33,642 bases of DNA. It comes from a virus. Lineage: Duplodnaviria; Heunggongvirae; Uroviricota; Caudoviricetes. Below are positions 3,001-9,000 of the stretch, one piece after another. Positions within the stretch are counted from its first letter, which is position 1, and every line of letters begins with the position of its first letter. The stretch lies in the IMG/VR virus record IMGVR_UViG_2880412407_000012, one strand, 5' to 3'. A program made the position numbers.

Positions 3001-6000
3001 TCTGCCCTAAGCGGTTCTCATGCCTCTGTTGCTAATGGCTTCGTTATAAGTGGTGCATTAAGTGTCATCGGAACATTACTGCCAGTAAATGCGATAGACT
3101 CTGCTGTGTTTGTAAGTCGGTTGATCTACCGGTTTTACGAGTTTCCTTCGACGCTATCTACAAATTTTACACATGTTAATGTAAGGCTTTTTCTTTCTGT
3201 TTTTCTTAGGATGTCCTATGCAAGCGATTTAATACGAGGATTTTTATCTGAAGATTTGATACCGAATAATTCATGGAGGAAAGATGCAGTTGATATTAAC
3301 ATGTATATAAACATGCTTCACCATGATTGGTATGATTATGTAATTAACAAATTGACGATGTTAACGGGGCTCACGAAAAAAGATGTACTTGATTTTATCG
3401 ATAGAAAATTATTCATAACCGAAACTATGTGCTATAGCCAAATTGGATTTCCAGATGCAATCACAATTAGTCTTAAAGATTGACAACTGTATGTAATAAA
3501 TATGGCATACTTCCGGCACAGAGCGAATATAACAGATCAGGTTTAGCTCTGTGCCATAGGTGTACCAACTCTCATCTGAGCTAATGCTCGTTACTCAATA
3601 ACTCCTGCAAATTTGTAAATCTTGCGTGATTCCCATTTATTTGGGCATGATTTAATATCAGGATCTGGAAAGTCTGGCCTGTATTTCTGGCCAGTTCTCC
3701 TGTTTACGCTGTTCCAGCGAAGAACGGTCGATACTGAAACGCCACAGAAGTCGGCGACTTGTTTAGTTGTCATTAAGTTGTTCATTACTTCACCTCCTGC
3801 GGTGGCTCCGGTAGCGGCATCCAGTGGGTTACTTTCGATGCCGGTTCTTCCCCATCGTCAGTAACTGCCCACCATTTGTTTCTCGACCAATCGTAATACC
3901 CTTCGAAGGTATCGCACTCAGTCCAGCCGTAAGACTTACCCCAACACCAAACATACTGTTTATCGTCCGGCATTCGCTCACTACAGCTTATCCAACCATC
4001 CGGAGTTACCAGAGAGTTGCCCGACAGCTCGTTCAACTTGTAAGTCTGGCTTACAGGTTCGGCACCATGAAGCATGGCGGCGCGGCAGGCGTTCCAGCCT
4101 TCATCAAAACCGACTATGCCATTATTTAAAGACGGACGAACATCTGGCACCATCGGCACTGGCTTGGCTATATATAGCGGCTGAACATACCAGCCCTTTG
4201 ATAACCAACTGTCAGCAATGTTTTTACTCCGTGTTATTGCCGGAATACCTAAGCCATTGTCTGAATGCAGCCATGCCACCGGTTCTGCTTCCAGCGATAC
4301 CAAAGCAATTTCATAAGCACGGCGCTCAATATTGTCTCGCACATCCAGACTGCCTATGCGCTCTTTGATTTCTTTAATCAGTTCTTTGTCGGTAAATGTG
4401 GTCATTATGCCCCTGCCTCCGGTGCCTTTGGTATTACTGCCCAGTGAGTGATATTGACGTTTTCAAGATCCCCGACCTGAAATGTCCACTGCCATTCTCC
4501 GGTTTCCTTTTGTCCCCAGGTGTACCAGAGAGAACGCCAGCCAATCAGCCAGCCTTCTCCGTTAGCATCAAATAACAGAACACTTTCATTTGCAGGTGGC
4601 AATTCAGCTGACACTGGTATTATTTTGTTTTCCAGTGCCGCACATTTAGCTTCAAGCGCGTCGAATTTACGTACTAGGTACTCAGCATTTGTTTCGTTCA
4701 CTTTCAGATCTCGCGGTACACATTTCCCGCGAAGAAACCCTTCCATTTCGAAAACATTCATGCGCATTTGCGTAACTCCGATAACTCGTTAAAACGTTCC
4801 ATAAACATCCCGTAGGCATGACCTGGAGACAGTGGAATAACTTTGAACATCTCTGTTGCCGGGATACCTTCCAATACAGGCCAGAAAGAGCCATCATCAA
4901 GTCCGAGATCGCGGCGTTCGGTTGCCAGCATAATGAGATCGGCATATTTCACTGGCGTGCTCATAACAGGAGGTAACCCGTATTTCTCACGGATTACGGC
5001 GTCTATTTTTTCTTCCATCCGTTTATAGTCAGGAAGAAGTCGTTTCAGTGGTGCGGGGATGTCCTGGCAATACGTTTCTGTTGCATCATGCATTAACGCT
5101 TCAAAAGCAAATTCCTGCGGCACCAGTTGGCTGCAAAGCACTGCATGCTGGGCGACACTGTAGAAGTGTGAAAGATGTCCTGCAAAGCGACAGATATTTG
5201 AAAGGGAAACCGCGATATCGTTAATCACGATGTCGTCTTTATTTATCTTGTCATAATAAAAATGCTTCCCGGAAAAAGTTTTAATAAATGACATTTTGTT
5301 CTCCACGTATATGCGCTGCACCGCGCAGAATTTTGGTTAAAGAAAACCCTCGCCATCAGGCGATTATTGAGTCAATTATGTTTCCATAAATGCCCCCGCA
5401 GGGGCATTTGCAGTAAGGAAATCAGGCGGTAAAAGTACCAATAAAGGTTTCTACTTTGCTGTCTTTGAATTTCTCAACAAGCAGATCACGAAATTCGTTA
5501 GCCATTTCTTCCTGCACTGCTCCTCATCATATCGACCCTGCAAGGTCGGTTGGTTTCTCCACAAAACAGAGAAGAACACCTGCGGTGGCATCCGCCCGGG
5601 TGGATTGGGTTATGAGCCCGTCGTCCGGTGATGCTCTTCTCTGTTTTGTAAAAAGAGCGGTACCAGCCGGAAGAAAGTGTACAAACTGGTACCGCCAAAG
5701 CAGTGGCTGTTGTGGTGGGGTTGTCACTCAGGCGTATGGTCAACCTGACAATCCGGTGTCCTCAACGGGGAAAGAGTAACCCCGCCATACTTACCGCCGC
5801 GCCATTTCGCGGATTACCACAACGCTGAGAGCACTTAGCCAGTTACGGCACCACACTTTGTCGCGGCTCCATAAATGCCCTCATCGTTGCACCCTGGTCT
5901 CTTCCCAGGCGTCAAACCGGATCGCCACGCTGGTTAGGCGTCTTATCAGCATCATCATTGACTTGCACATTCCGGCTACCTGGTTTGTTTGCCCGAGCAA

Positions 6001-9000
6001 GGAGTGGATTGTCCCCTTTAACGTCCCCAGACCGCTAACGACACATGTGCCATACGCCGTGTTACAACCAAATTTTGTTAGTACCTTGTTTGTTGGTCTG
6101 GAAAGAAAGATAAAATGAAGTTGCGTATCATGCAAGTCTTTTTATTGCGAGATGTGCAATTTTATGGGTAATGAAAAGCCACCTTCGGGTGGCTAATTGA
6201 TGAGGAGGTAAGGGTTAATTGTGTCGCTTAAGGGTTTGTGACTGGCTGATTAAGACCTTTCCAAAGACCATAAACCGGTGTTCATTTTCGCTGGTAATTC
6301 CCCATTCACGGTAAATCTGGTTATCAGAAATCACCAGTAGTTTGTCAGGTATCATTTGTAGTCGTTTGACATAAATTTTATCATCAAAACCAAATACATA
6401 GATACCATCTCCATCAAACTGATTGATACTGACATCAACGAAGATGAGATCTCCTGGCTCAATGGTTGGACACATACTGTCCCCACGAACGTTGATAACT
6501 TTAATGTGATTGGCTGGTCGTCCGCCAAACATCGATACAGCATTATCAGTTCTGTATTCAATGGCATGAATCACATCAATGACATCACCGCCCTGGATAA
6601 GGCCATTTCCCGCACTGGCACTGACATCCAGCATTTCAATACGGAATACATCCTTCACCTGCGCAACATCCTCACTAATACTGTTTTTACATACAGTATT
6701 ACTTTTGAAGTCTGAGGTAAAGAGATCAGCAATATCAACACCTAAGCTCCTGGCAATATTACTCAGGGCTTGTTCAGTGAATTGTTTCTGCTTACCTGTT
6801 TCCAGGCGTGAGATATTCGCCGCATCCACTCCTATTGCTTCAGCGAGATCGGCGATTTTCATGTTCTTCGCCTGGCGAAGTTGTCTGACTCGATTTCCTA
6901 TGTTCATGCGTTTATTACATTTCTTTATTGCGCATTAAGCAAATCAACTTGCGCAAAATATTTGCGTGAAATAATATGCTCATCACGCAATATGTGGAGG
7001 TCATATGCAATCACCATTACGGAATGTGCGTAAGGCGCACGGATTTACTTTGCAGCATGTTGCTGCGGGCGTTCAGGTCAATCCAGCGACGCTGAGTCGT
7101 ATTGAAAGACTGGAACAAATTCCATCTATCGATCTTGCAGAACGTCTGGCCAATTTTTTTAAGGGTGAAATCAGCGAAATGCAGATTCTTTATCCGACAC
7201 GTTTTCAATCTAGCCAAAACCAGAATGGGTTTAAACCACAGGAACAGGAGGTAAGCCGTGGGTAAGCATCACTGGAAAATGGAAAAACAGCCTGAGTGGT
7301 ACGTGAAAGCTGTCAGAAAAACTATCGCGGCGTTGCCGGGGGGTTACGCTGAAGCTGCTGAGTGGCTGGATGTAACAGAGAACGCTTTATTCAACCGCCT
7401 TCGTGCAGATGGCGATCAGATTTTCCCGCTGGGATGGGCAATGATTTTACAGCGCGCGGCTGGCACTCACTACATTGCGGATGCTGTCGCACAGTCTGCA
7501 GGTGGGGTGTTTGTATCGCTTCCTGACATTGAGGAAGTTGAGAACGCCGATATAAACCAGCGCCTGCTGGAAGTCATCGAACAGATCGGGAGTTACTCAA
7601 AACAGATTCGTTCGGCAATCGAAGATGGGGTAGTGGAGCCACACGAGCAGACAGCAATTAATGATGAGTTGTATCTGTCAATTTCGAAGCTCCAGGAGCA
7701 TGCAGCACTGGTCTACAAAATCTTTTGCGCTCCAGAAAAGAGTGACGCCCGCGAGTGTGCAGCTCCGGGCGTCGTGGCGTTTTGTGTCTGTGGAGAAACT
7801 AACGCATGAACAGTTTAACGGCAAATAACCGTTTGTCGCAACAGCTGGTGGTCAGCGTCTCTGAACACCTGTTGTTACGGCATGAATGCAGATTACCAAA
7901 TCACCTGGCTGTAAGTAACCACAGAGAACTTTACCTGACTGTGGGGGGCGAGTTGTGCAGGAACTTAACCGCTGGTTTCGTGACGGAAGAGGGCTTTATG
8001 TTCATGTTATTCGTTGGGAACCAGAAACACAGCGCGTTATCTATCTTCGCAAAGACTACCCGCATGAGTGCTTTAGTCCTTTGTGGAAATTCAGGCGTGA
8101 TTTTGTTGAGTGTGAAGGACCACCAGCACATTGATTCTGCCATTCCGGGACGTTACACTGTTCAGGCACCTTATAAAGCGGGTGCCGGGATTGGCGTCCT
8201 AGAAATGTTATCGGCGATATATGACGCGCCAGCGTCTTTTTTATCGTCTGCGTCTGTGCACACCCAAATTATGGTGGGCTGGACGGGGGCACCGAAAGGT
8301 GCGCCGGTTTCCGATAACGCCGGTTACGCCAACCCCGTTCAGTTCACCACCAGCGAAATTGGCGTTTCCGGTGGTGAAGGTAATTCACTGTTATCGGAGG
8401 CTGCCATCATGGCTACGATCTCAACCCTCACTCAACCTGAAATTGCCATCGTTGATGGTCAGGCTGTTACTTCATCCCTGGCTGTTGCCAACTTCTTCTC
8501 CAAACGTCATGACGATGTACTGAAAAAGATCCGCACGCTTGAATGCTCTGCATCATTCACTTCCCGCAATTTTTCGGTGAGTGATTACACCGATTGCACA
8601 GGCCGCAAACTACCTTGCTATCAAATAACCCGCGACGGCTTTGCGTTTCTTGCTATGGGTTTCACGGGTAAACGTGCTGCCCAGTTCAAAGAGGCATACA
8701 TCAATGCCTTTAACCAGATGGAGAAACAGCTTTCAAATCCCTCTGTACTGAGCGACGTTGCACATAACGCCAGCGTTCTCTATTCCTACATTTCATCAAT
8801 TCATCAGGTCTGGCTGCAGCAGCTTTATCCTATGTTGGCAAAAGCCGAATCTCCGCTGGCTGTTAGCTTGTATGACTATATTAATGATGCTTCGGCACTG
8901 GCCTGCCTCATAAATTTGTCGCTGAACCCTTCAGAGGTAAGGGGGCGCAAATGATCCGGAATATTTTCAAACGGTTTACCAATCAGACTTTCCGTTGTCC

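Follow-up and report, generated by a model that had tools for sequence, protein, structure and literature searches.

The early-left promoter (pL) of phage lambda is followed by a leader comprising nutL, an RNase III hairpin and the N gene. In HK022, a lambdoid phage devoid of N, a noncoding structured RNA, the put site, lies right after pL. A further case of RNA encoded in a repressor-controlled early-left operon is dicBF (ydfABC-dicF-dicB) of the Qin prophage, from which a 190-nt DicF species is generated by RNase III and a 53-nt species by RNase E (Ragunathan et al., bioRxiv 10.1101/2023.04.14.536235, citing Faubladier 1990); the RNase E cut lies 5' of DicF, and no longer read-through species was detected. 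For the related phage LLS, also devoid of N, a put-like mechanism has been speculated (PMC12315714, 2025). Here we describe the pL leader in a 33,642-nt stretch of viral DNA (IMG/VR record IMGVR_UViG_2880412407_000012; hereafter the window), an SfV/cdtI/mEp460-type lambdoid prophage of E. coli 2014C-4423 inserted beside yjjG (RefSeq). Since its early-left genes run leftward, the leader RNA of interest is the minus-strand transcript. As in lambda, structured elements fill the space between pL and the first gene, with a terminator to pass and a long helix that may be cut by RNase III, but there is neither an N gene nor a boxB. The minus strand of 6100-5520 is probably a pL-driven noncoding-RNA precursor, processed in the manner of the Qin dicBF transcript. 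It is a chain of independently shuffled RNA modules, in the order A-H-C-D-E.

The modular organization is apparent from the distribution of homologous sequences. By BLAST, the block 5517-6079 is ~98% conserved in phages cdtI, mEp460, Ayreon, 2H10 and in Stx2c and Stx2a phages, in all of which it lies between cI and the first early-left gene. At the same time, parts of it recur in unrelated contexts: 6073-5896 in P1 and P7; 6060-5817 in phiV10, TL-2011b and O157 typing phage 9; 5823-5701 in the Qin-type prophages of most E. coli; and 5697-5517 in SfV, SfII, SfIV and ST64B. The recurrent module boundaries coincide with GTTGTGG...CCACAAC.

The closest parallel is with Qin, where the same parts follow each other in the same order: helix H, module C and a hairpin with a U-tail. 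Helix H (5820-5889, minus strand) pairs CAACGAUGAGGGCAUU (5889-5874) with AGUGCUCUCAGCGUUG (5835-5820) around a variable insert (-34.6 kcal/mol, z = -3.2). A comparison of its two strands, joined by an artificial GAAA loop, across 12 sequence types (SfV, ST64B and Qin included) gave 93.5% of cells paired and compensatory changes at 9 of 14 pairs, a result reached by 0 of 500 shuffles. The slot after H, closed by GUGGU...ACCAC, is occupied here by module C (5709-5823, minus strand), which RNAalifold folds into a cloverleaf-like four-way junction closed by GUUGUGGU/ACCACAAC, with three arms besides the closing stem and junction spacers of 3, 1, 0 and 1 nt (13 variants; 32 pairs, only 4 of them with compensatory changes). 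Module C is 89.5% identical to its Qin counterpart (3108-2985 of locus L002). In Qin-type prophages C has its own H helix, and dicF begins 16 nt after C. Module D (5650-5708, minus strand) occupies the position of DicF, that is, 3' of the H-C block in an early-left operon and ending in a hairpin with a U-tail. Its DicF-like hairpin, formed by GGCGGUACCAG (5696-5686) with CUGGUACCGC (5666-5657) and followed by UCUUUUU, has a folding energy of -22.4 kcal/mol (z = -3.1). D and DicF have UUUGGCGGUAYCAGUUU and the CCGCYCUUUUU tail in common, but D lacks the 5' ftsZ-pairing seed of DicF (UUUCUGGUGAC), having AGCCACUGC in that place, and the loops differ. A distance of 190 nt, measured upstream from the point where the U-run of DicF ends, reaches the junction CCG/GUUGUGGC, exactly where the 3' strand of H stops and the first base of C follows. 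The 190-nt species therefore consists of C plus DicF, with H as the RNase III stem. By analogy, helix H of the window is a likely RNase III processing stem, and its H-C-D segment, homologous to the DicF precursor, represents a new variant of that known architecture. The two arrangements differ in what comes first: the protein genes ydfABC in Qin, and here module A, with the array lying directly after pL.

The content of the slot varies. It holds a tRNA-Arg gene in phage 9 and phiV10 and other cassettes elsewhere, part of them with STnc100 motifs. The slot cassettes of SfV and ST64B share with STnc100/PasD (RF02076) the closure (G)UGGUGAAU...CACCA(C) and the hairpin CACCGGGAGGCACCCGG, whereas module C of the window has no match to STnc100. 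Nor does C have a tRNA identity according to ARAGORN, which found in the window only two tRNAs, both in the late region. In two loci (L094, L125) the helix H insert is enlarged and contains the tRNA T-arm-like strings GGTTCAATTCC and GTTCGATTCGGAC, which suggests that tRNA fragments have been captured in the array.

The best-supported structured RNA of the leader is module A (5885-6068, minus strand; alignment A2, covariance model R1), a ~185-nt RNA with five covariation-supported helices, one of them a pseudoknot. An exact 22-mer of module A retrieved 120 IMG/VR loci, and a gapped pattern extended the set to diverged copies in Kosakonia, Citrobacter, Kluyvera, Superficieibacter, Pseudocitrobacter, Buttiauxella, Pseudescherichia, Erwinia dacicola and E. 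whittamii; A2 comprises 20 non-redundant, diverse homologues. In the window the fold consists of the P1 hairpin (6059-6039), the P2 arm with a variable distal part (6035-5975), the P4 hairpin (5941-5927), a P4-loop pseudoknot of AACC (5935-5932) with GGUU (5918-5915), the P5 hairpin with a GAAGAGA loop (5909-5893), and a candidate pseudoknot of the invariant GCACAU (6050-6045) with AUGUGC (5970-5965). In A2, 99.0% of the cells are paired (29-43% in slid controls), and both-side changes occur at 11 pairs, spanning 56 cells. The covariation score of 0.300 (0.114 in shuffles) was reached by 0 of 500 shuffles. The support for the P4-loop pseudoknot is one covarying pair (C-G to A-U, 5 sequences). 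Several pairs are G-U (columns 12/28, 38/91 and 135/149) and valid on the minus-strand transcript only, which fixes the strand of the RNA. The fold also has long unpaired stretches that do not vary.

Model R1 scores module A of the window at 162 bits; across diverse Enterobacterales, each locus has exactly one copy, scoring 139-167 bits. The model finds no module A in put phages or Qin, and a pattern search with three mismatches combined with R1 over the whole window revealed no second copy on the side of the early-right promoter (pR). There was no module A match in Rfam 15, searched with the whole window at gathering scores and with the leader (1.1 kb) at an expectation value (E) of up to 10. 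A topology like that of the hepatitis delta virus (HDV) ribozyme was considered and rejected, as the helix order, compared by eye only, does not fit. As an RNA family, module A seems not to have been described before.

An earlier note on this DNA had drawn attention to the inverted repeats of the leader, taken as a possible put-like element or other structured RNA, and had proposed RNA folding, covariation analysis and an Rfam search. The 600-nt leader 6100-5500 does fold better than shuffled sequences overall (z = -4.7), and the stems do show compensatory changes, in A, H and C alike; the Rfam search contributed nothing relevant to the leader. The hairpins flagged in that note are real, albeit less informative than module A, which it had missed. 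Its inference of a structured noncoding RNA rather than decayed coding sequence holds, while the suggestion of a put-like element is not supported, as detailed below.

Module A is very widespread in temperate phages of enterobacteria. Of 5,426 complete E. coli genomes, 1,832 carry it according to a distant BLAST search, with 2,466 copies in all, 554 of them on plasmids. At 25 RefSeq places, sampled across these 2,466 from the strongest match down to the weakest, no RNA feature is annotated over module A, and one plasmid copy is covered by a hypothetical-protein call. A literature text search with module A sequence strings produced no match. The module also occurs downstream of trnI in phage P1 and upstream of tRNA-Arg in phiV10-like phages. 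Among 140 copies whose context was counted, 68 lie 92-147 nt past the stop of a same-strand cI-type repressor open reading frame (ORF), just after pL, as in the window, where A begins ~40 nt past the predicted pL start; 27 are directly 3' of a P1-type tRNA (trnI) with zero spacer, and 28 directly 5' of tRNA-Arg. The neighbours include at least three repressor types and at least six downstream cassette types.

Some leaders of this type open differently. In SfV (L158, ~1700-1770), ST64B (L157, ~1940-2010) and SfII (L159, ~2075-2160) the pL leader begins with another module, consisting of AACAGGCAGGACGCCCACGAAGUAGCCGCC, a hairpin and then AUGAUUCG, and this hairpin covaries (CCUGG..CCAGG versus CCGG..CCGG); SfII retains a decayed module A (9 bits). 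In four loci (L135, L139, L133, L007) the P2 apical loop of A and the loop of the terminator hairpin downstream both contain a CU-rich motif, UUCCCUUGA(UGCU); in L135 and L139 the two loops are identical across 13 nt. Other CU-rich, anti-Shine-Dalgarno-like loops (CUCUUU, UUCCUU, CCUCCA, CUCCUU) cap the middle arm of module C.

The remaining modules appear suited to ending and separating the transcript. The GC-rich stem of module D comprises 11 bp (12 in the centroid fold) and runs directly into a U-run (UCUUUUUA); we read D as an intrinsic terminator and, at the same time, the 3' module of a DicF-type small RNA. In phage 9 three compensated pairs preserve the stem; in ST64B a different hairpin stands here, with the same U-tract. 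Directly after the D U-tract begins module E (5561-5649, minus strand), a 21-bp perfect stem (arms 5561-5580 and 5629-5649) around a conserved structured insert, with a folding energy of -44.7 kcal/mol (z = -7.1) that none of 200 shuffles matched. E is kept in SfV, SfII, ST64B (with a G-C to A-U compensation in the stem) and a Citrobacter prophage. Its perfect 21-bp helix makes it a plausible RNase III substrate, and we regard E as a candidate RNase III site. These two structures correspond to inverted repeats seen earlier at about 5655-5695 (CGGTACCAG/CTGGTACCG, arms at 5686-5696 and 5657-5666) and about 5567-5588/5634-5650. All features named in the earlier note were in fact recovered, with coordinates off by only a few bases. 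D and E are kept as a unit before differing first genes (yfdP, yfdR or others), and the idea of a shared cassette of RNA plus first gene was rejected, as the first ORF past the array in phage 9 (Phage_gp49_66 family) is unrelated to yfdP. Also rejected was a boxA/nut reading of CGCUCUUUUUACAA (5658-5645), which is the D 3' arm plus U-tract: its resemblance to lambda boxA is that of a terminator tail only, and the GCUCUU core is not conserved, being GUCCUU, GACCUU or GCCCUU in relatives.

The leader shows no coding capacity. All five ORFs of at least 66 aa (66-107 aa) have non-triplet indels and/or stops in Citrobacter, SfV or ST64B homologues, two of them, over 5858-6135, being frameshifted in 13-14 of 36 close homologues, and none of the five has a Pfam match. 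An N-like gene was found neither here nor in homologous or related phages by annotations, ORF comparison and Pfam. The view that the region has no convincing ORF and no N-like gene is thereby borne out, and the homologous phages, too, lack N rather than carrying an intact version of it.

The leader does not extend as far left as had been thought (5330-6214): it is conserved and noncoding above ~5520, while 5330-5520 comprises the 3' end of yfdQ and the yfdQ-yfdR spacer. The segment 5520-5300 is 93.7% identical to the yfdQ 3' end, spacer and yfdR start of SfV. In intact relatives yfdP (363 nt) and yfdQ (825 nt) lie between leader and yfdR; here, by alignment, the last ~30 codons of yfdQ are fused to the yfdP ribosome-binding-site region (5422-5520, minus strand), annotated in RefSeq as a truncated pseudogene. 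We therefore read 5520-5330 as the scar of a deletion that removed yfdP and most of yfdQ, plus an intergenic hairpin. The latter, AAAUGCCCCUGCGGGGGCAUUU in the yfdQ-yfdR spacer (5388-5409, minus strand; z = -3.7), is the GC hairpin previously placed at about 5389-5411 and is kept in SfII and SfV. Another small hairpin, CGACCUUGCAGGGUCG (5533-5548, minus strand), stands upstream of the yfdP ribosome-binding site in intact relatives. The D loop UUUCUUCC could pair with GGAAGAAA, which precedes the remnant ORF, but this was dismissed as coincidence, because GGAAGAAA is internal yfdQ sequence moved there by the deletion. The first intact early-left gene of this copy is yfdR (5'-deoxynucleotidase; 4758-5294, minus strand), which starts at ATG 5294 according to RefSeq and not at 5321, as assumed earlier for this HD hydrolase gene; the GTG at 5321 merely begins the longest possible yfdR ORF.

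At its upstream end the leader is preceded by the cI-like S24 repressor gene (6215-6907, minus strand); cro-like and YmfL-like protein genes run rightward from 7005 on. As the earlier note had it, the repressor gene ends in an intrinsic terminator (6177-6194, minus strand; hairpin AGCCACCCGAAGGUGGCU then UUUU, by terminator scan and sequence reading), followed by operators. The latter, which we designate oL (6121-6159), are two 15-bp palindromes read directly from the sequence, TTGCATGATACGCAA (6121-6135) and TTGCACATCTCGCAA (6145-6159), with half-sites of the TTGCG/TTGCA...GCAA type, the same as those of the operators between cI and cro. The predicted pL (6107-6135, minus strand) has a -35 TTGCAT (6135-6130), a 17-nt spacer and a -10 TATCTT (6112-6107), placing a putative transcription start near 6100, and the same TTGCAT-N17-TATCTT geometry is present in SfII, which shares the repressor. 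In Citrobacter, Pseudocitrobacter and Buttiauxella (L135, L139, L148, L150) a TTGACA-N17-TACCTT promoter 20-60 nt upstream of A overlaps the palindrome TTACCTnnnAGGTAA, and the combination looks like another repressor-controlled early promoter.

By analogy with Qin, transcription from the repressor-controlled early-left promoter would yield an A-H-C-D-E precursor. RNase III cleavage at H (14-16-bp stem) would free A on one side and C plus D on the other, and an RNase E cut 3' of C would then free D as a ~58-nt small RNA. D would end most transcripts and so attenuate the early-left genes, while on read-through transcripts E would serve as an RNase III site parting the RNA part from the downstream mRNA. 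A might accumulate as a discrete stable RNA, and either A or D may have targets of its own.

Several observations weigh against this reading. The promoter was predicted by eye and is absent from the output of a consensus promoter scan. The terminator scan did not list D, because its 19-nt loop exceeds the 8-nt limit of the scan. No Rfam DicF (RF00039) match was obtained for D at E up to 10, with either the 1.1-kb leader or a 201-nt sub-window, and under the same E limit module C had no tRNA or STnc100 match in Rfam. The covariation of C is modest, with 4 pairs among closely related sequences, and the GCACAU/AUGUGC pairing of A, invariant across A2, is a candidate pseudoknot only. A literature search gave no expression, 5'/3'-end or cleavage data for this phage type. 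Moreover, the explanation assigns no role to module A, the largest and best-conserved part of the array.

A role would be supplied by the alternative that module A is a cis-acting processive antiterminator RNA in place of N or put: having folded after pL, A would bind RNA polymerase and allow it to read through D and later terminators. We consider this unlikely, albeit attractive. The phage and all relatives with this leader lack N, the same absence having led the authors of the LLS study to speculate on a put-like mechanism (PMC12315714), and in the lambdoid copies A comes first after pL, ~40 nt from the predicted start and upstream of D. A long untranslated leader also needs protection from Rho.

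A covariance model of put (R2), built from six put RNAs of HK022, HK639, phiEt88, CobraSix and S9-5, detects all putL and putR sites at 55-101 bits, among them the putR sites of HK022 and phiEt88. On the leader it scores 1.0 bit (E 8.2), and a search of SfV, ST64B, SfII and Stx phages with R2 gave nothing. The leader is thus not supported as an HK022-type put site. It differs from put in size and complexity (~185 nt and at least five helices in module A against ~70 nt and two stem-loops), in number, put having a second site, putR, where the window holds a single copy of A, and in distribution, since module A, unlike put, is also found in P1 and in phiV10-like phages beside tRNAs. A short put-like identity in A does exist, consisting of CAUGCGUCG and a CGGCG stem. 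The 3' half of the first hairpin of A (CAUG(C/U)GUCG; CAUGCGUCG in copies of the phage P1 type, CAUGUGUCG here) matches putL C26-G34, including U28, which contacts the beta-prime zinc-binding domain. However, this 9-mer is too short to be evidence of homology; with the 5' strand of the hairpin fixed by base pairing, the similarity carries little weight. In the ST64B leader, an apparent likeness to put or to A was confirmed by neither model. The best R2 match in the window, at 7 bits (E 0.14 in a 2.7-kb search), is at 7810-7876 on the plus strand, where an AACGGC...GUCG hairpin and a second stem lie just after ymfL in the pR operon, a putR-like position; the match is not significant.

Further arguments against an antiterminator come from the distribution of A. 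No copy is present on the pR side; the P1 copy is ~2.3 kb from the ban promoter (Pban), downstream of the leader terminator and just before ban; 39% of copies abut tRNA genes, as expected of a stable-RNA gene; and SfV and ST64B have the same D and E and the same operon without A, with another covarying module in its place.

That module A would instead be a ligand- or protein-sensing cis-regulatory leader of the riboswitch or attenuator type is improbable in our estimation. Aptamers typically have complex pseudoknotted folds with long unpaired stretches that do not vary, as module A does, and A is promoter-proximal in the lambdoid copies, but there is no Rfam riboswitch match and no constant expression platform, A being followed by H and any of at least six cassettes, by a tRNA or by ban. 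Even less credit is given to the possibility that the repeats act as DNA, serving as an origin or as sites of recombination or cassette exchange. The recurrence of GTTGTGG...CCACAAC at module boundaries does suggest hot spots of cassette exchange; on the other hand, the G-U wobbles that preserve pairing are valid on just one strand, the elements invariably point the same way as the tRNAs and genes beside them, and for the homologous region of Qin a processed transcript has been documented. Finally, decayed coding sequence, be it a dead N-like gene or another pseudogene, is very improbable: although 5422-5520 is a true gene remnant and hypothetical ORFs are annotated over the leader in some phage records, 5520-6100 contains no intact conserved ORF in any homologue, has non-triplet indels and no Pfam match, and its substitutions keep RNA pairing, G-U included.

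The preferred reading, that of a DicF-like precursor, invites comparison also with the ban operon leader of P1, likewise a C1-repressed early operon, whose promoter is immediately followed by a module-C-like block and a terminator and which also carries tRNAs. In P1 module A (167 bits) abuts the 3' end of trnI; the parts are ordered and spaced differently, and H and the cassette after A have been lost. The module-C-like block of P1 (230-383 of L006) is 75% identical to 5812-5717 of the window, and a strong terminator-like hairpin, GCCCAUCUUCGGGUGGGC plus UUUUUU, stands right after Pban, before trnA and trnT. The P1 record annotates only a 'dicF-like region', with nothing over module A.

Elsewhere in the window, the late region of the prophage (18758-19009 and 17752-17984) carries tRNA-Met and tRNA-Arg followed by STnc100 (18758-18947), with the AgvB anti-sRNA on the opposite strand; a preprint on Pas/STnc100 deals with late-region small RNAs only. 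Rfam matches to isrK and C4 antisense RNA (8166-8242 and 8267-8354) fall inside a 382-aa ORF (7806-8954, plus strand) whose annotation reads 'Rha family phage regulatory protein'. Its first ~190 codons are probably a P1 immI-like c4 RNA region, and the annotated protein start probably lies too far upstream. Beside the integrase, the gene of a CHAT-domain protein and an adjoining hypothetical gene (2182-3483, plus strand) could be prophage cargo or a defence system, and an ALIL pseudoknot (24230-24346, minus strand), a frameshift signal of the IS3 family, marks an insertion sequence inside the prophage.

The comparison with this prophage provides an explanation of the classical DicF precursor, in which the 190-nt RNase III species is a cloverleaf-like cassette plus DicF, and reveals one common slot through which tRNAs, tRNA-like cassettes and small RNAs are exchanged. 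Module A, present in 34% of complete E. coli genomes, is among the commoner unannotated structured RNAs of this species and is common to three unrelated temperate phage types. As a tentative suggestion, it may represent a new class of phage RNA acting on host machinery early after induction. The most interesting version of this suggestion is an RNA-polymerase-modifying processive antiterminator with a fold unrelated to put; the habitual placement of A beside phage tRNAs is equally compatible with a stable RNA binding or decoying a host protein, such as one of tRNA metabolism or defence. If true, antitermination by A would explain early-left expression past D in N-less lambdoids (SfV, cdtI, ST64B, LLS and some Stx phages), a branch that includes Shigella serotype-converting phages, a cdt phage and some Stx phages. 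Their N-less pL leader contains not a put site but a conserved array, with the predicted terminator D and, before it, the new, strongly covarying RNA A. With a defined candidate terminator and a covarying RNA upstream of it, the question of how these phages deal with early termination becomes directly testable.

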